A stretch of DNA of 7,154 nucleotides, taken from a virus. Taxonomy: Duplodnaviria > Heunggongvirae > Uroviricota > Caudoviricetes. Where the stretch lies: IMG/VR virus record IMGVR_UViG_3300014682_000009; one strand, written 5' to 3'. Made by a program: the position numbers and the translations under genes. Positions 63-7,154 of the stretch are shown in pieces (position 1 is the first letter of the stretch; each line of letters starts with the position of its first letter). Under the pieces are notes generated by a model that was not told the DNA's origin, ran no database searches, and saw only the letters and a program-made list of their open reading frames with translations.

Positions 63-84
63 TCCTCACGCTCCATAAACGACA

Positions 85-104
85 AAACCGCCCGCAGGCG
101 GTTT
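85..104 (-). terminator. Terminator-like hairpin with U-tract in the I-J intergenic region
   Basis: Minus-strand RNA AAACCGCC-UGCG-GGCGGUUU (stem up to 8 bp with a 5-bp GC core, 4-nt loop) followed by UUUUGUCGUUU; sits between the I stop (125..123) and the J start (62..60). Confidence 0.45.
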
Positions 105-122
105 CACATAAAACATTTTGCA

Positions 123-770
123 TCAGCGACCAATCACCACAACCTGACCACCGTCCCCTTCGTCTGCCGTGCTGATCTCCTGAGAAACCACGCGTGACCC
201 CACGCGCATTTCCCCGTACAGAACAGGCAGAACATTGCCCTGGGCAACCATGTTATCCAGTGAGGAGAAATAGGTGTTCTGCTTACCGTTATCCGTTGTC
301 TGTGTACGGGGAGTTCTGGCTTTCGGTGCCAGCATCTGCGCCACACCACCGAGCACCATACTGGCCCCCGCACCATACATTCCTGTAATTGCGGCAGCCC
401 CCAACCAACCTGCGGGGTTCCACCATGCCACCGCAATCAGCGCCGCCCCCAGCACAGCCTGAAAAAGACCGCCACTTTTGGCTCCCGCCAGACGCGGCAC
501 AATGTGGATCACGGCACCATTTGCCAGCGATTCATTAAGACGGGCTGATAATTCGTTTTCGCCTGCATCACGCCCGGCAATGCGCACCTGATACCAGCCA
601 TCGCTCAGTTTCTGACGAAACGACGGAAGCTGCGTGGCCAGCGCCCGGATGGCTTCAGCCCCCGTTTTCACACGAAGGTCGATGCGGCGACCAAATCGTT
701 GCAAATCCCCGTAAAGACAGATGCGTGCCATTCCCGGTGACGCCAGAGGGAGTGTGTGCGTCGCTGCCAT
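123..770 (-). CDS. I: Tail tip assembly protein I (lambda gpI family)
   Basis: 215-aa ORF; N-terminus MAATHTLPLASPGMARICLYGDLQRFGRRIDLRVKTGAEAIRALATQLP and C-terminus ...VSQEISTADEGDGGQVVVIGR match lambda gpI from memory. AGAGGT SD about 11 nt upstream of the ATG. Overlaps the 3' end of K by 103 nt in another frame, as in lambda. Confidence 0.92.
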   Translation of the reverse strand: MAATHTLPLASPGMARICLYGDLQRFGRRIDLRVKTGAEAIRALATQLPSFRQKLSDGWYQVRIAGRDAGENELSARLNESLANGAVIHIVPRLAGAKSGGLFQAVLGAALIAVAWWNPAGWLGAAAITGMYGAGASMVLGGVAQMLAPKARTPRTQTTDNGKQNTYFSSLDNMVAQGNVLPVLYGEMRVGSRVVSQEISTADEGDGGQVVVIGR

Positions 771-1411
771 TTGTCGGTATACCTCTCTCGTTTACTCAGT
801 TGTTCAGGAATATGGTGCAGCAGCTCGCCGTCGCCGCAGTAAATGGCGGCATGATTCGGTACCGATGAACCAAAGCAGCACAGCAGCACGTCGCCAGGCT
901 GCGCCTCTGTCAGTGCAACACGGTAAAACCCCGTCGCCTCCATATTGTCAAGATAGAGATTCTGACCGTTACGCCACCAGTCATCCCCGCGATGAAAATC
1001 CGGCATCTCAATCCCCGCCAGATGGTAAGCATCCCGGAACAGTGTGTAACAGTCCGTCACCCCGTGCTCAAAGCGCCGCCCGGTAAGATGCGGCACACAG
1101 CGGAACTTGTGAATCGCCCCCCGGCAGACCAGCCACCACGGCAAATCACTCTGCACCTGCAGCCGCCGGTCAGCCTCACTCAGCCAGGGCAGACCACCGG
1201 GGTGGCTGTGGACCAGCGCCACAATCTCACCCTGCATCTCTGCCCGCAGCCAGTCCTCCGGAGCCATCCGGAAATACGCCTCCGGCTCACCGGAGATATT
1301 CACGCAGGGAAAATATCTTTCTCCCTCCGGCGTTCTCACCACGAAGCCGCACGACTCCGCTGGCGCACATCGCCGGGCGTGCGCCAGAATCGCTGATTCT
1401 GTCTCTGTCAT
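668..1411 (-). CDS. K: Tail tip assembly protein K (lambda gpK family) with MPN/JAMM-like and NlpC/P60-like motifs
   Basis: 247-aa ORF. JAMM-type motif H-S-H-x7-S-x2-D in ...VALVHSHPGGLPWLSEADRR; NlpC/P60-type Cys/His signature in ...VTDCYTLFRDAY...NHAAIYCGDGELLHH. The ATG at 1411 lies 5 nt after the L stop with no obvious SD, so translational coupling is likely; an internal Met49 start (199 aa) is the alternative. Confidence 0.88.
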   Translation of the reverse strand: MTETESAILAHARRCAPAESCGFVVRTPEGERYFPCVNISGEPEAYFRMAPEDWLRAEMQGEIVALVHSHPGGLPWLSEADRRLQVQSDLPWWLVCRGAIHKFRCVPHLTGRRFEHGVTDCYTLFRDAYHLAGIEMPDFHRGDDWWRNGQNLYLDNMEATGFYRVALTEAQPGDVLLCCFGSSVPNHAAIYCGDGELLHHIPEQLSKRERYTDKWQRRTHSLWRHREWHASVFTGICNDLVAASTFV

Positions 1412-2115: not shown

Positions 2116-2456
2116 CAGTGAGTGACCTCTTCAAAGGTACAGTTAAAATCGGTATACATGGCATTATCCGAAATGCTCCACTCCCTGCAGACAACCCGGA
2201 CAGTCCTGTTGTGTTTTGGCGGACGCCACAAAAAAGCACGAATCCCGGCATGACGGGATAAAAAACTGTCCAGCGCGGCACGGGAATATTCATCTGTGAC
2301 ACGAAATACCGGTTTAAACGTTTTCAGATCCGCATTCAGACCACCAGCCCGTCGCTGTTCATATCCGTCACCAAACTTTACCGTAATAACTGATGGCTTT
2401 CGTGTCGTCTCCATCCCCTCACGGGGGATCCAGTTAAAAACTTCAGGCTCAGGCAC
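2115..2456 (-). CDS. M: Minor tail protein M (lambda gpM family); start uncertain between GTG 2456, ATG 2471 and ATG 2414
   Basis: Translation ...VKFGDGYEQRRAGGLNADLKT...FLWRPP... aligns with lambda gpM (VRFGDGYSQRAPAGLNANLKT...FLWTPP). GTG at 2456 has a strong GGAGGA SD 7 nt upstream (2469..2464) and overlaps the tape-measure stop by 8 nt. The ATG at 2471 sits inside that SD and has no SD of its own. The TTG at 2501 used by the ORF track is unlikely. Confidence 0.85.
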   Translation of the reverse strand: MPEPEVFNWIPREGMETTRKPSVITVKFGDGYEQRRAGGLNADLKTFKPVFRVTDEYSRAALDSFLSRHAGIRAFLWRPPKHNRTVRVVCREWSISDNAMYTDFNCTFEEVTH

Positions 2457-5400
2457 TGTACAATCCTCCATCCCGACGCGATGACTGCATAATTGACACA
2501 ACCCTGCTGTCGATCAGATCCACCAGTCCCCTGGCTGAGCGCGCATCTATCTCGCCATTGCTCCCTTGATTCTGAATGCTGATGTGATACACGGGAGAAT
2601 AAACAAATCCACCGCCACCATTCACATTTCCAATGGCCCTGACCCCAAGAGAGCCGTCCGCTGCCCGTGTCAGTGGCATGATTGCTTCAGGCCCGGCCTC
2701 GCCCATCAACCCGGCACCTTTCGCAAAAGCAAAATACGTCGGTGTATCCACAATAGTGTTACTGTAAGCACTCAGATTTGCCGATGTGTAAACACCACCT
2801 TTTGCGTTTGCCACTGCCCCCGAAATCCATCCGCCGACCGTACCAAGCCACCCTCCGGCACCGGAGAGTGATTTCAGTCCGTTAACAATGGCTGCATTCA
2901 TCAGAATTTTTGAAACTTCCCGGAGAACTGAACTCCCCCAGTTCCTCCAGTCCACAACATTCCCGGCCAGTGCATCGGAAATATTTGATACCAGCCCGTC
3001 CATCGTGGAAACGACAGCATCTGCCGCCTGTGAAGCATAATCGGTGGCACTGTCTGCCCAGTTGGTCAGTCCCTCCTGGAGTCCGGCATTCCAGTTATTA
3101 CGTAAAGCATCGGCCTTTGCATAATAATCCTGCTGATCGCTGAGACGCTCTTCCAGATATTTTTTATTCAGTTCTTTCTCCTGTTTCCACAGGGCTTCTT
3201 CAATTTCTCCGGCCTGATACTGTCTCAGCAGCTCGTTATTTTTCTGCTCAAACGCCTGCCGGATACTCCACATTTCCTGGAGTCGTTCACGCATCCGTGA
3301 GCCTTCACCATATCCCAGCAACTGCGCGTCGTCAGATGCCCGGGCACTGGCATTACTGTCCGCCAGGCTGCTCTCATACGCAGCAAGCTGCTCACGAATC
3401 TTTTTCTGGTCGATGAGTGCTGCATTCTGCAAAAGCGTTTTTTTCTGCGCTTCTGACAGGGTTGATAATTCGCCCTGACTGACCTGATATTTCATCTTAG
3501 CCAGTTCAGTATTCTGCCCTGCCAGTGCTATTTGTTCTTTTTGCTGTTTAATCAGCCGTTTATAAATATCTTCTGTTTTTTCAGCTTCGGTCTTTTTATG
3601 CGCTTTTGGTTTATTTGCCTGGTTATTTCGCCAGGCATCCAGTGAGTTATTGATATAATTCTGTCTGGCTGTCTGATACGCCTCTCCCACAAAGCCGAGA
3701 TCATCCGCAGCATAACCCAGGCGGGCACGCTCACGGGCTTCCCCCTTCAGGCGGGACAGAGCCAGTTCGCGCTCGCTGTTATTCAGTGCTGTCTGCTGTT
3801 TATCATCCAGGGTTGCCTGTGGTAGCCGTAACGGTACATTCACCATCCCCTGTCGCTGCTGAAGTAATTCATTACCGAGCCCGAGAAGGCGATTAAACTC
3901 GGTATGCTGCCCATTCATGATCAACAGGGACTGATACGCTTTGTTTTGTTCCGCTGCCTGTTGACGGATCAACGCCACCCGTCGCTCCTCCAGCCCGGCA
4001 AGCACATCCTGAATGGATTCCGCTTTGCCCTGCATTTGTGTGAGACGGGACTGTTCAACTGCCAGTTGATTTGTTGCTTCTGCAAGCCCTTCTGTGACAG
4101 TTTTTACCGACGTCATGTGGTTAATCATAAAACCGTTATCGGTTGTCCAGCCCGGGTTTGCCAGCACATACTGATAGCCAGCAATTTTTTCCTGTAAGGA
4201 TTTAATCTTACTTTTCTGCTCGTCAATTAACCTGTTTTGCTCATCAAGTGCCTGCCGCGTCTTTTCCTCATTATCTGACGCTTCAGGAAGCGACATTGCC
4301 GACGTTTTCTGGCGAATTTCGTCGATTGTTGCGGCATACTGGCGTGCAGATTCTCTGGCCTGCTCCTGATTCTGATACATCGTGTACCAGGCCGTCGCCC
4401 CCAGCATGACGAGTCCCGGCACACCACCAACCAACCCCAGCGCACCACTTAACAGACGACTCCCCACTGACGTGACAGTATTCAGCGTTGTCTGTGCCGC
4501 TGTTCTGGCCGCAATATTACGGGTAAGTGACGCCTGGGCAGCAGCCAGTTTCGCTTCTGCGGCTGCCTGCCTTTCGGTACCGCGAGCAGCAACAACCGCC
4601 TGTTGCGCACGATAAACCGCCGCACGCGCCCTGGCTGTTGCTATCTGTGTCCCCCGGAGCTGCGCTTCCGCAAGAGCCACTTCGTTTCTGGCTGCAGTAA
4701 TTAATCCGGCAGTTGCAGATCCAGCAGAAGACGCCATATTGCCAAAATATCGGGCTACCCCGACGGCAACCAGAGCACCAGCAGCGGTTGCCACAGTGTC
4801 AATATTGCCTGCAATACCATTCAGCACACCGGAGAGCGTCTTCGTCACTCCGCTTGCCTCGTTCGCACCACCAACCCAGGCCATAAAGGCGTTTTCAACT
4901 TTGGTTGCAGAGGATGAAACCGTATCAGGCATTGCCGCATATTCATCACGTAATGCCCCAAGCTGACTAATCAGTGCAGGAACAACCTTATCGGCGGTCA
5001 GTTTTCCGTTATCCGCCATGGCCTTCAGATCCTTACGGGCAACCCCCATTCCCGCAGCCAGCGCACGAATAACACGATCGCCGTTCTCATTCACCGAGTT
5101 AAACTCTTCACCGCGCAGCACTCCCTGCGCCAGTGCCTGACTGAACTGCGTGATCACCGAACTGGCTTCTGCTGTACTGGCACCGGATAATTTCAGGCCC
5201 GTGGAGATCGCCTCGGTGACTTTCAGTACCTCCTCAGAACTGTAACCATACTCCCGCATGGAAGCTGCAGAACGGGCAAAAAGGCTGGCGTTATCAGAAA
5301 ACGCCGTCCCCGTTCTCTGGCTGATCGCCATTAATTCACGTTGTGATACCTGAAAATCATCACTGGACTGTGAGGCCTGCTTCAGACGGGCATTTACTGA

Positions 5401-5682
5401 ATTCCACTCATCGGCGAGAGAAATAAGATGACCGGTAGCAAAAGCCCCGGCAAATGCCCCCGTCATATTCAGTGCCGAAGATTTAGCTGTATTTATCTGA
5501 TCCGTCACTTCTGCCAGTGCACGCCGCATTTCACGGGATGCAGCAGCGGACTGCCGGCCTCCGTTCTGCATGGTACGGTAGTAATCCTGCCCCATACGCG
5601 AAGCCCGGGAGATCTCTGACTGGAATGACCGGGAATTTGCCGAGATTTTAATAATCAGTTCACGTAATGTCGCCACACTCAT
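2449..5682 (-). CDS. Tail tape measure protein (tail length determinant; lambda gpH functional equivalent, divergent sequence)
   Basis: 1077-aa ORF placed between the G/G-T chaperone genes and M. Long Ala/Gln/Glu/Lys-rich predicted helical stretches, two hydrophobic segments (around ...TVATAAGALVAVGVARYF... and ...LLSGALGLVGGVPGLVMLGATAWY...), and a Gly-rich C-terminal region ending ...RDGGLYSA that resembles the lambda gpH C-terminus (...RDGGLFS...). ATG at 5682 with GGAG immediately upstream (short spacer). Confidence 0.93.
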   Translation of the reverse strand: MSVATLRELIIKISANSRSFQSEISRASRMGQDYYRTMQNGGRQSAAASREMRRALAEVTDQINTAKSSALNMTGAFAGAFATGHLISLADEWNSVNARLKQASQSSDDFQVSQRELMAISQRTGTAFSDNASLFARSAASMREYGYSSEEVLKVTEAISTGLKLSGASTAEASSVITQFSQALAQGVLRGEEFNSVNENGDRVIRALAAGMGVARKDLKAMADNGKLTADKVVPALISQLGALRDEYAAMPDTVSSSATKVENAFMAWVGGANEASGVTKTLSGVLNGIAGNIDTVATAAGALVAVGVARYFGNMASSAGSATAGLITAARNEVALAEAQLRGTQIATARARAAVYRAQQAVVAARGTERQAAAEAKLAAAQASLTRNIAARTAAQTTLNTVTSVGSRLLSGALGLVGGVPGLVMLGATAWYTMYQNQEQARESARQYAATIDEIRQKTSAMSLPEASDNEEKTRQALDEQNRLIDEQKSKIKSLQEKIAGYQYVLANPGWTTDNGFMINHMTSVKTVTEGLAEATNQLAVEQSRLTQMQGKAESIQDVLAGLEERRVALIRQQAAEQNKAYQSLLIMNGQHTEFNRLLGLGNELLQQRQGMVNVPLRLPQATLDDKQQTALNNSERELALSRLKGEARERARLGYAADDLGFVGEAYQTARQNYINNSLDAWRNNQANKPKAHKKTEAEKTEDIYKRLIKQQKEQIALAGQNTELAKMKYQVSQGELSTLSEAQKKTLLQNAALIDQKKIREQLAAYESSLADSNASARASDDAQLLGYGEGSRMRERLQEMWSIRQAFEQKNNELLRQYQAGEIEEALWKQEKELNKKYLEERLSDQQDYYAKADALRNNWNAGLQEGLTNWADSATDYASQAADAVVSTMDGLVSNISDALAGNVVDWRNWGSSVLREVSKILMNAAIVNGLKSLSGAGGWLGTVGGWISGAVANAKGGVYTSANLSAYSNTIVDTPTYFAFAKGAGLMGEAGPEAIMPLTRAADGSLGVRAIGNVNGGGGFVYSPVYHISIQNQGSNGEIDARSARGLVDLIDSRVVSIMQSSRRDGGLYSA

Positions 5683-5692
5683 TCTCCGGACG

Positions 5693-5714
5693 AAAAAAAA
5701 CCGCCGAAGCGGTT
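5693..5714 (-). terminator. Terminator-like hairpin (UUCG tetraloop) with U8 tract in the T-H intergenic region
   Basis: Minus-strand RNA AACCGC-UUCG-GCGGUU followed by a run of eight U in total; lies between the T stop (5725..5723) and the tape-measure ATG (5682). Confidence 0.45.
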
Positions 5715-5722
5715 ATGTTGAC

Positions 5723-6411
5723 TCACTGAGACACTATTAAAAGCGCGTTTTCCAGTCCGGCAAATGGATCTGATACGCCTTCTGTCTGCTCCTTCTCCCA
5801 CTGAAGAAGCGCATCATTCAGTGGCACTTTGACCCCCTGCGCACCGTAAACAGCTGAAACAATCTGGGCAGCCCGGATATCAGCCCGTTCGTCCCCCAGC
5901 GGGCTGAACCTGTCAAATTCTGCCCACATCATGATTTCTGATGCGGACATTTCCCGGCGTAACTCTGACAATGTGCGCCCCATCCTGAGCGCCAGCATCA
6001 TCAGAAAACGCATCCCCGGAAGCTCTACTTTTTTTTAACCTCGCCGGCATCACTGATCAGTTCCAGAGACTGCCGAAGAAGCCGCGCATGCACCGGGCCA
6101 TACACGGCAATCACCTGTTCACGATCATCCTCTGAAAATACAGGTTGCAGTCCGGTATCACACAGAACATCAATGAACAGTTCAACATCTGCCTCCAGAT
6201 TTCGGCGGGCGCGCTCCGCAACGGATAACGGTGTCTCATCATCTTTTGCTTTAACGATCTCCTGCCAGCGCAACCAGGCTTCTGCAGAAGGTTCCCGTAA
6301 TACAACCGTTGCCCCTTCCCATTCAGGCACATCAACAGTTTTATGGCGAAACCCCGACATCGTTGCCAGTGCCAGATTGCGGATATTTTTAGTCATCACA
6401 TCTATCCTCAT
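5723..6411 (-). CDS. GT: G-T fusion chaperone produced by programmed -1 ribosomal frameshift (T segment 5723-6034 in the -1 frame)
   Basis: The 96-aa T ORF (5723..6013) is in the -1 frame relative to G. The -1 frame is closed by TAA at 6037..6035 and open from 6034, so the shift must occur in the heptamer at 6034..6028. Predicted junction ...GEVKKK|VELPGMRFLMMLAL... Confidence 0.85.
6025..6411 (-). CDS. G: Tail assembly chaperone G (lambda gpG functional equivalent)
   Basis: 128-aa acidic ORF immediately downstream of V (TAATG stop/start overlap at 6413..6409), ending ...GEVKKK-TAG with the slippery A_AAA_AAG at its last two codons; position and frameshift architecture are diagnostic of G. 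Confidence 0.88.
   Translation of the reverse strand: MRIDVMTKNIRNLALATMSGFRHKTVDVPEWEGATVVLREPSAEAWLRWQEIVKAKDDETPLSVAERARRNLEADVELFIDVLCDTGLQPVFSEDDREQVIAVYGPVHARLLRQSLELISDAGEVKKK
6028..6034 (-). other. Slippery heptamer A_AAA_AAG (X_XXY_YYZ) for the G-T -1 frameshift, abutting the G stop codon
   Basis: Minus-strand reading GAG GTT AAA AAA AAG TAG, part of an 8-A run (plus 6029-6036 is T8); the zero-frame stop TAG is at 6027..6025, directly 3' of the heptamer. Confidence 0.8.
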
Positions 6412-7115
6412 TAACTGACGGTAACAGTGCAGGAAGTGGAGGTCACCTTGTTAACAGGGCTTGCTGAATCAGAAATCTCGCAGGTATACGCACCGGCATC
6501 ACCTGATGCTGCTGATGCCTTACTGAATGTTGCCGCCGTCTGTCCGGAAACAGGAGAACTACCTTTCTTCCAGACATAAGAATAAGGCGGCACACCACCG
6601 GCAGCCTCAACCACCATTTCGAGTTTCGCTCCGGCAGAAACCTGCAGCGTGCTGTTTAAATCGACCTTCACTTTCAGCGGCTCTGTCGTCAGCACAGGTT
6701 TACCTTTCAGGCGCAGGGAAAACGTTGCAGCCACAACACCATTAGTTCCTGCAGACCAGGTATGCTGACGCACCTCTGCCATAAAGGTAAATCCGTTGCC
6801 TGACGGAAAAATAACTTTAAAGCCATACGTGGTGTCATTGTCATAGGCACTGCGCAACGCGTTCTGGGCAGCATTGAGGTAAAAGTTGCCTGACATGGAA
6901 ATCTCTGACGCGGCACCAAGGCCGTTAATATTTTCCTGCTCAACAGAACACAGCGTGGTGACATCAATATCCTGCTTTTGTCCTGCGGTAAACTGCACCT
7001 CTTTGATTGTACAGCTCAGGCCAAGATAGCTGGCAGAATCCAGGGTTTCTGCTGTTACCGGTGCAGACGAAATCATAATTTTCGTCAGTTGCGAACGCTC
7101 AAAATTAGAGGACAT
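6411..7115 (-). CDS. V: Major tail (tube) protein V with C-terminal Ig-like domain
   Basis: 234-aa ORF with a strong AGGAGA SD 5 nt upstream of the ATG at 7115, sitting immediately upstream of G/G-T. The C-terminal ~90 aa (…KVDLNSTLQVSAGAKLEMVVEAAGGVPPYSYVWKKGSSPVSGQTAATFSKASAASGDAGAYTCEISD…TVTVS) has the look of a bacterial Ig-like domain, as at the C-terminus of lambda gpV. The N-terminal domain is not lambda-like in sequence. Confidence 0.9.
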   Translation of the reverse strand: MSSNFERSQLTKIMISSAPVTAETLDSASYLGLSCTIKEVQFTAGQKQDIDVTTLCSVEQENINGLGAASEISMSGNFYLNAAQNALRSAYDNDTTYGFKVIFPSGNGFTFMAEVRQHTWSAGTNGVVAATFSLRLKGKPVLTTEPLKVKVDLNSTLQVSAGAKLEMVVEAAGGVPPYSYVWKKGSSPVSGQTAATFSKASAASGDAGAYTCEISDSASPVNKVTSTSCTVTVS

Positions 7116-7130
7116 ACTCGTCTCCTGAAA

Positions 7131-7154
7131 ATAAAAAACCCGCCAGCGGCGGGG
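7131..7154 (-). terminator. Intrinsic-terminator-like hairpin with U-tract upstream of V (3' of the preceding gene, presumably U)
   Basis: Minus-strand RNA CCCGCC-GCU-GGCGGG (6-bp all-GC stem) followed by UUUUUUAU, then the V SD and ATG. The structure abuts the window edge, so the 5' flank is unseen. Confidence 0.5.

Follow-up and report, generated by a model that had tools for sequence, protein, structure and literature searches.

The window analysed here, a stretch of 7,154 nt from the Caudoviricetes record IMGVR_UViG_3300014682_000009 of IMG/VR, holds a phage tail module that is wholly encoded by the minus strand and consists of the major tail tube gene V, the tail assembly chaperone genes G and T, the tape measure gene H, then M, L, K, I and the start of J. 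The element under study is a GC-rich hairpin followed by a tract of U in the spacer between the tail terminator gene U and the tail tube gene V (the U-V junction), and two elements of the same kind stand in front of H (T-H) and in front of J (I-J). An earlier note on this DNA had described the three as bearing the signature of intrinsic terminators inside what should be one antiterminated late operon. As detailed below, they are not chance structures, and the one in front of V is kept by compensatory changes across bacterial genera. The features of the U-V junction are the following:

7139-7153, minus strand: stem-loop CCCGCC-GCU-GGCGGG, six G-C pairs (7153-7148 with 7144-7139) and a 3-nt loop, found by reading the sequence, by a terminator scan and by folding
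7128-7138, minus strand: U tract U6-A-U4, directly abutting the stem and reaching the ribosome-binding site of V
7113-7126, minus strand: ribosome-binding site AGGAG (7126-7122) and start codon ATG (7115-7113) of V, the start also used by PGAP

The hairpin and U tract upstream of V are read directly at 7153-7128 of the minus strand, where the junction is, 5' to 3', CCCCGCCGCTGGCGGGTTTTTTATTTTCAGGAGACGAGTATG; the transcribed strand continues through them as CCCCGCCGCTGGCGGG TTTTTTATTTT C AGGAG ACGAGT ATG. The U tract ends 12 nt before the start codon of V, and in the matching records the stop codon of the tail terminator gene (gp17 or "U") lies 59 nt upstream of the V ATG. The hairpin, which is only just contained in the window, has a calculated energy of -10.3 kcal/mol with its six pairs, and in most relatives an A instead of the C at 7154 adds a seventh, A-U pair that brings it to -12.0 kcal/mol. 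Within a 120-nt context, it is present in both the minimum free energy (MFE) and the centroid folds, in which the U tract and the Shine-Dalgarno (SD) sequence remain open. Besides, the element ranks first in the window by the terminator scan, and an equally good one arose in only 4 of 2000 shuffled versions of the spacer. The signature announced by the earlier note is thereby complete and co-oriented with the genes, and the assignment of the U-V element as a canonical Rho-independent (intrinsic) terminator on the late-gene strand seems secure as far as that signature goes. A bidirectional terminator was also considered and rejected, the plus strand having no T tract after the hairpin, and the covariance models of Rfam 15 gave no match anywhere in the window at E <= 1.

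The elements in front of the tape measure gene and J

The two other junctions carry the following features:

5699-5714, minus strand: T-H stem-loop AACCGC-UUCG-GCGGUU, 6 bp, -8.0 kcal/mol
5693-5700, minus strand: T-H run of eight U, two of them inside the stem, then CGUCC and the SD sequence GGAG of H
85-104, minus strand: I-J stem-loop AAACCGCC-UGCG-GGCGGUUU, 8-9 bp with an optional G105.U84 pair, -13 to -14.4 kcal/mol
75-84, minus strand: I-J interrupted U tract UGUCGUUUAU

As DNA, the I-J element is AAACCGCC-TGCG-GGCGGTTT, followed by TGTCGTTTAT. T-H and I-J do, as had been proposed, each carry a hairpin and a U tract, with the reservation that the tract of I-J is interrupted. All three elements combine a GC-rich stem, a short loop and the orientation of the genes with an adjacent U run, which at I-J is there in part only (UUUUGUCGUUU, the U residues of the stem included). 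The I-J tail is weaker than those of U-V and T-H, while L006, ECP1 and HK97 have U6-7 at this place. It was missed by the terminator scan because of its interrupted U tract, greedy extension of the stem through G.U leaving a poor tail.

Weak calculated energies had been named beforehand as what would speak against these hairpins; the values obtained (-10.3 kcal/mol at U-V, -8.0 at T-H and -14.4 at I-J) are those of stable hairpins. The view that the U-V element is the strongest of the three holds for the combination of stem and U run, which is the best there, but not for each part taken separately, since the I-J stem is the most stable and the T-H U run the longest. Spacer shuffling gave an equally good element in 5 of 2000 cases for T-H and in 1 of 2000 for I-J. 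In addition, a control in which the whole window was block-shuffled averaged 0.33 matches at -9 kcal/mol or better, whereas the real window contains eight overlapping registers at this level, of which seven fall in the U-V or I-J spacers and the eighth within H (4771-4753). The three elements, before V, before H and before J, are not due to chance.

A few side observations concern the same sequences. The register inside H, on the coding strand at 4753-4771, is a hairpin GGTTGCC-GTCGG-GGTAGCC of -9.9 kcal/mol with a poor T tail. The T run of T-H counts 7, 8 or 9 T among near-identical prophages, as is typical of homopolymer slippage, and no other variation occurs at this site. The isolated T-H spacer (window 5683-5709) has as its MFE fold an alternative helix rather than the terminator hairpin, CUUCGGCGG pairing with UCG-UCCGGAG, which would sequester the SD sequence of H; it is calculated at -10.4 against -8.0 kcal/mol, with a z-score of only -1.5 and conservation seen in near-identical copies only.

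Conservation and covariation

A hairpin and T tract upstream of the major tail gene were found in all 16 diverged relatives that were read. These comprise HK97, the Shiga toxin (Stx)-type phage BP-4795, Klebsiella phi12.2, Salmonella SP-016, Morganella IME1369_02, ECP1 and Cronobacter ENT39118; the Burkholderia phages phiE125, KS9 and PhiBP82.1 and a Halomonas phage; and prophages of Phytobacter, Symbiopectobacterium, Superficieibacter and one unclassified bacterium (L005). Fourteen diverged U-V spacers were tested by shuffling, each being equalled by at most 2 of 500 shuffles, and two further Burkholderia phages were read by eye, both positive. The element is kept down to 33-39% identity of the V protein, the values of the Burkholderia phages. 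Its layout is constant: the stop codon is followed, after 17-30 nt of variable sequence, by a perfectly paired, GC-rich hairpin and a T run, and 10-15 nt further on stand the SD sequence and ATG, the gap between the tail terminator gene and the major tail gene being 52-66 nt in every relative read.

The stems themselves vary among relatives (CCCGCC/GGCGGG, GACCGC/GCGGTC, AAGCTGC/GCAGCTT, GGCCCGC/GCGGGCC, CCCGGC/GCCGGG). In a MAFFT alignment of all 14 junctions, HK97, L003 and L004 fell out of register through differing loop lengths; pairs were therefore counted on the 13 sequences in register, and the remaining three were read by eye. Among the 13 aligned sequences, 92% of the cells are paired and four of the seven pairs have changed on both sides; none of 500 shuffles reached the covariation score, and sliding the 3' arm lowered the pairing to 30-51%. 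In the Burkholderia phage PhiBP82.1, the helix is kept through G.U only, which assigns the structure to the sense RNA.

The search of genome contigs with V gave four useful relatives, while that of viral contigs returned 97-100% identical copies only, which served the analysis of polymorphism and not that of covariation. Eighty near-identical IMG/VR relatives were available, 47 of them with a readable I-J spacer. In these 47, the pairing of the I-J stem is never lost, its sole change being that of the outer A-U to G.U, while the loop is polymorphic (TGCG, TCCG, TCAG, CCCG) and the flanks are as well. Taken together, the covariation and the invariant stems amid variable loops and flanks indicate purifying selection on these elements as RNA hairpins with an adjacent U run.

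Genes of the module and its mosaic make-up

The genes of the window are, in the order of transcription:

6411-7115, minus strand: V, major tail tube gene with a C-terminal immunoglobulin-like domain, homologue of HK97 gp12
6025-6411, minus strand: G, tail assembly chaperone
5723-6013, minus strand: T, tail assembly chaperone, G-T being produced by a -1 frameshift at A AAA AAG
2449-5682, minus strand: H, tape measure gene
following H, minus strand: M, then L (1417-2115)
668-1411, minus strand: K
123-770, minus strand: I
start at 62, minus strand: J

The true start of H is probably the GTG at 5676, in agreement with the PGAP call. G ends in the slippery run A AAA AAG (GTT AAA AAA AAG TAG on the minus strand of window 6025-6045); HK97 gp13/gp14 are annotated with the same kind of -1 frameshift fusion, while PGAP keeps G and T as separate genes. 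Spacers of more than 15 nt occur in the module at U-V, T-H and I-J only, and to that extent the earlier description of these three as the only non-overlapping junctions stands, though it overlooks the 5 nt between L and K and the frameshift junction between G and T. The V-G junction is TAATG as described but measures 14 nt with the PGAP start of G, and the M/L overlap, given as ATGA, is in fact TGATG.

Several phages and prophages of E. coli, vB_EcoM-606R7, Evi and phi467 among them, share 96.5-99% identity with the window DNA, and 899 of 5426 complete E. coli genomes contain the U-V junction together with the 5' portion of V. The similarity to better-known phages is divided: positions 1-2135 (L, K, I and the start of J) are 89.5% identical to phage lambda, while for positions 2600-7153 (V, G, T and H) the identity to HK97 is 67-76%. 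Judged by these identities, the tail module is a mosaic in which an HK97-like V-G-T-H is joined to a lambda-like L-K-I-J, with the joint near the M/L boundary; the head genes adjoining the module are of HK97 type. Since V-G-T-H is of HK97 type, the lambda names V, G, T and H denote functional equivalents only.

The element also bears on the annotation of V. A longer V open reading frame (ORF) running through the hairpin (ON470580 6251-7006; ORF64 of BP-4795, AJ556162; gp12 of phi644-2, NC_009235) was considered and rejected, the upstream in-frame ATG not being conserved; some extended V ORFs in database records even overlap the preceding gene. The N-terminus MS(A/S)x(F/Y)E, counted from the ATG at 7115, is kept in relatives, and as both PGAP and HK97 start V at the ATG after the SD sequence, from which this conservation begins, the longer V ORFs look like annotation artefacts.

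Moron sites at T-H and I-J

Morons are units expressed from the prophage with a promoter and a terminator of their own (PMC3594210). In the relatives, T-H is an insertion hot spot with varied cargo, the terminator always standing immediately before the ribosome-binding site of the tape measure gene:

HK97: gp15 moron (YebO-like)
Superficieibacter (L006): 296-aa TPR protein
Symbiopectobacterium (L004): antisense ORF6N antirepressor-like protein and a 134-aa ORF
Klebsiella: 94-aa ORF
SP-016: 111-aa zinc-ribbon ORF
Halomonas: 112-aa ORF

These T-H junctions lie at L006 11162-12090, L004 11437-13054, L107 11003-11347, L108 10682-11144, L113 10921-11314 and L025 8203-8422, and some of the small cargo ORFs gave no Pfam match. 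In SP-016, the moron gene is followed by AAAACCGC-TTCG-GCGGTTTT, and the same hairpin stands alone in the T-H spacer of the window. At I-J, HK97 has morons (gp22/23) and BP-4795 extra DNA, each ending in a terminator just before J. The T-H (40-46 nt) and I-J (60 nt) spacers of the window hold the terminator only, with neither an ORF nor a promoter-like site within these 40-60 nt; by comparison with the relatives, the two are empty moron sites with the terminator only. No cargo or moron was seen at the U-V junction in any relative examined, and a moron scar at U-V, a candidate explanation of the element there, was rejected on this ground and because the stems covary.

The late operon around the elements

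The premise of the earlier note that the module belongs to an antiterminated late operon is borne out by the prophage of NZ_CP032265.1, whose U-V junction is 100% identical to that of the window. This prophage carries a Q antiterminator gene (PF06323, E 3.5e-90) and, in order on one strand, Q, four tRNA genes, the holin, lysozyme and spanin genes, the terminase, and the structural genes through J. With Q upstream in the matching prophage, the premise of a Q-antiterminated late operon holds, the Q context being established in that prophage, which matches at the U-V junction, and not in the window's own source. Q proteins form a nozzle at the RNA exit channel of the polymerase, precluding the formation of terminator hairpins (PMC9388147; 10.1101/651190). 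The four tRNA genes (Ile, Lys, Thr and Gly; L114 21470-21779, which is NZ_CP032265.1 4149469-4149778) occupy the interval between Q and holin, where tRNAs and toxin genes are placed in Stx phages.

From the small terminase gene to J, the late operon of the matching prophage has a GC hairpin in every spacer of more than 15 nt. A fourth hairpin, outside the window, follows the major capsid gene (L002 10916-10966): AGGGGGCGCA-GAAG-TGCGCCCCCT, without a U run. A hairpin at the 3' end of the capsid gene is also present in HK97 and in Klebsiella, Morganella, ECP1, phiE125, Halomonas and KS9 phages, mostly without a U run; stabilisers of mRNA 3' ends classically occupy this place. A further hairpin, AGGCCGGTT-CGTT-AACCGGCCT, was noticed inside the protease gene on the coding strand (L002 12503-12524, -14.8 kcal/mol); its tail is weakly T-rich (TTCTATTG), without an uninterrupted U run.

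A promoter between the U-V terminator and V was also sought and rejected, only 10-15 nt being available, with no promoter-like match. As the stem and the SD sequence are only 10-15 nt apart in all relatives, no promoter fits between the terminator and V, and since V is essential, its transcription would have to proceed by read-through of the element.

Possible roles of the elements

The reading favoured here, to which a probability of roughly 0.45 is given, is that the three elements are genuine intrinsic terminators that would stop unmodified polymerase in the lysogen and would be ignored by Q-loaded polymerase. Unmodified RNA polymerase would reach the region in the lysogen from moron promoters, from spurious internal promoters or by leak-through; the GC stem would then fold in the RNA exit channel and the weak rU:dA hybrid would free the transcript. 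The tube gene, the tape-measure/tip genes and J would in this way be kept silent, and cassettes expressed from the prophage would be insulated from them. After induction, Q-loaded polymerase coming from the late promoter, its exit channel extended, would form no terminator hairpins and would pass all three sites, and the hairpins, which would remain in the polycistronic mRNA, may additionally serve as barriers to 3' exonucleases. The analysis shows the signature with its conservation and covariation, the presence of Q, the lack of space for a promoter and the link of two sites to morons, whereas termination, the efficiency of read-through and the benefit to the lysogen are inferred. The presence of a proximal U run in every relative favours termination, as termination requires such a run whereas a mere stability hairpin does not. 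The lysogen-terminator reading would further account for the contrast between this kept U run and the U-less hairpin of the capsid gene, for the link to morons at two of the three sites, and for the presence of Q.

Nevertheless, several points weigh against it. No moron or promoter against which the element would insulate was seen upstream of U-V in any relative, and a selective cost of leaky tail-tube expression in the lysogen has to be presumed. The conservation up to Burkholderia and Halomonas phages implies strong selection, which a function in the lytic cycle would explain more easily. No Q-type antiterminator was recognised in phiE125, as judged from the annotation and from Pfam on five candidate ORFs only. 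Lambda has neither a spacer nor a hairpin of this kind at U-V or T-H, which implies that tails of this type can do without the element. Finally, the U-rich tract always extends to the SD sequence, which would fit a role in translation initiation as well.

A second view is that the hairpins act in the finished mRNA, either as barriers to 3' exonucleases that define segments (neck, V-G-T, H-I and J) or, with the U-rich leader, as insulated, S1-friendly initiation cassettes that uncouple V, H and J from weakly translated upstream genes, or as both; we consider it rather unlikely. The operon does use intercistronic hairpins, an example being that behind the capsid gene, which in most cases has no U tract, and the T-H hairpin would shield a V-G-T segment at its 3' end. 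At each of the three sites, the gene that follows is unable to couple translationally to the one upstream, the distance from stem to SD at U-V is a constant 10-15 nt, U-rich throughout, in every relative read, and the 120-nt fold contains the hairpin together with an open U tract and SD sequence. A function of this kind, exerted in the lytic cycle, would fit the strong conservation across genera. In the same line, the leader of E. coli rnd is said, after work by Zhang and Deutscher, to contain a terminator-like hairpin with U8 that is needed for translation and not for termination. Yet neither role needs a U run abutting a GC stem, which is kept everywhere, since an AU-rich leader or a bare hairpin would suffice. 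Besides, H and J are low-copy and have no need of boosted initiation, the U-V hairpin would protect only the segment of the low-copy neck proteins, and in lambda a high expression of V is reached without a hairpin, the U-V spacer being of 7 nt.

A setting of relative dosage, as put forward in the earlier note, would require the terminators to be leaky in lytic growth, part of the Q-modified polymerase being lost at each site, with mRNA declining stepwise from head to tube to tape measure/tip to J. The full terminator signature and the arrangement of the elements in series along one operon are as expected of this model, and a gradient of head over tube over tip is compatible with the stoichiometry of lambda-like virions. 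It is at T-H, which divides the abundant V and G from the rare H, that the logic of dosage fits, and only there: U-V precedes the most abundant tail protein and follows neck proteins present in 6-12 copies, so that an attenuator would oppose the required stoichiometry, while J, like all the genes ahead of it, is low-copy, leaving I-J without an obvious role in dosage. Lambda, moreover, lacks an element at both U-V and T-H and yet reaches this stoichiometry. Leakiness would be needed for the production of V where no antiterminator is recognisable, as in phiE125, but Q-type nozzles are reported to preclude terminator hairpins (PMC9388147). On balance, dosage control is judged unlikely.

A more speculative proposal, which we hold to be improbable, regards the U-V hairpin and U run as an ancient and obligatory read-through gate of HK97-type tail modules, with a chief task other than ordinary termination. 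The gate would either combine an insulator with a translation-initiation cassette that raises the translation of the tube far above that of the neck genes, or act as a safeguard by which the tube protein escapes detection in lysogens; it could, for example, hide this protein from host defences that sense tail-tube proteins. Were this true, phages without a recognisable Q would have to pass U-V in some other way.

Lastly, that the elements are functionless leftovers, scars of morons or linkers at the recombination joints between exchangeable modules, would agree with the insertion hot spots at T-H and I-J, with a T-H hairpin identical to the one behind the SP-016 moron gene and with the HK97-like/lambda-like mosaic of the window, but is highly improbable and largely refuted by the compensatory changes and perfect stems across genera at U-V, where a moron was never seen, and by the invariant I-J stem amid polymorphic loops and flanks, as neutral scars would decay.

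Significance

If the lysogen-terminator reading holds, a late operon of 20 kb can carry real terminators and yet be expressed, processive antitermination hiding them in the lytic cycle while they would be active in the lysogen. The elements are present in about one sixth of complete E. coli genomes and in Stx-converting phages, and they bear on the insulation of prophage structural and cargo genes. In practical terms, the conserved U-V terminator helps to correct mis-annotated, extended ORFs of the major tail gene, prophage cargo genes may profitably be sought in the T-H and I-J spacers with their terminators, and the covarying U-V element would offer a clean model for asking whether internal terminators have any role in lytic growth. 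Term-seq data exist for enterohaemorrhagic E. coli Sakai, the text of that study describing the Stx late-promoter region only (PMC7547250); they are deposited in GEO with dRNA-seq and RNA-seq data (GSE143631), and lambdoid prophages of O157 do contain homologous gp11-gp12 junctions. Literature searches for internal terminators of lambdoid late operons that had been mapped by transcript 3' ends or tested functionally gave nothing specific.

Comparison with known systems

The closest counterpart is HK97, whose record (NC_002167/AF069529) lists a "putative terminator" at 6692-6719 (gp11/gp12), at 8398-8422 (before the tape measure gene) and at 15107-15129 (before J), with further ones after the portal gene, after the capsid gene, after V and after a K-I moron. 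By blastn, window 7153-5797 aligns with HK97 6694-8071 at 66.6% identity, beginning inside the annotated feature 6692-6719, the homologue of the U-V element, and the V protein is 72% identical to HK97 gp12. The junctions and the orientation are shared, as is the layout, in which about 20 nt separate the stop codon from the GC hairpin and the T run, the SD sequence and ATG follow, and the core of the U-V hairpin, CCCGCC/GGCGGG, is identical, whereas the loop is AGAT in HK97 and GCT in the window. Other differences are that the T-H and I-J terminators of HK97 follow morons (gp15; gp22/23) while the spacers of the window hold the terminator alone, and that the hairpin after V is absent from the window. 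The HK97 annotation is a prediction, as is the assignment in the window.

With lambda, the I-J spacer (within lambda 15445-15504) is shared nearly base for base over the 60 nt of the window, including the stem AAACCGCC/GGCGGTTT, the loop TGCG and the ribosome-binding site of J, although the hairpin is not annotated in the lambda RefSeq record. There is, by contrast, no lambda counterpart of U-V or T-H, the U-V spacer being 7 nt there and T and H overlapping. Compared with moron terminators such as that of HK97 gene 15, the T-H element has the same junction and the same position directly upstream of the ribosome-binding site of the tape measure gene, but in the window it marks an empty site with no ORF and no promoter.

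Like tR' in the lambdoid tR'/Q system, the elements would be intrinsic terminators on the late transcription path that Q-loaded polymerase reads through. However, tR' is found directly after the late promoter, where it serves as the regulatory switch, whereas the elements of the window stand among structural genes at a distance of more than 10 kb downstream and are not known to take part in regulation. Hairpins that stabilise mRNA between cistrons include the REP elements in malEFG, those of the Rhodobacter puf operon and those after phage major capsid genes; they too are stable GC hairpins in polycistronic spacers, but they do not require an adjacent U run, which the three elements of the window keep.

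Given the HK97 annotation at all three junctions and the lambda I-J spacer, the elements themselves are already known rather than new. What may be added here is the conservation of the U-V element across genera with its covariation, and the dependence on read-through that would follow for the tube gene.

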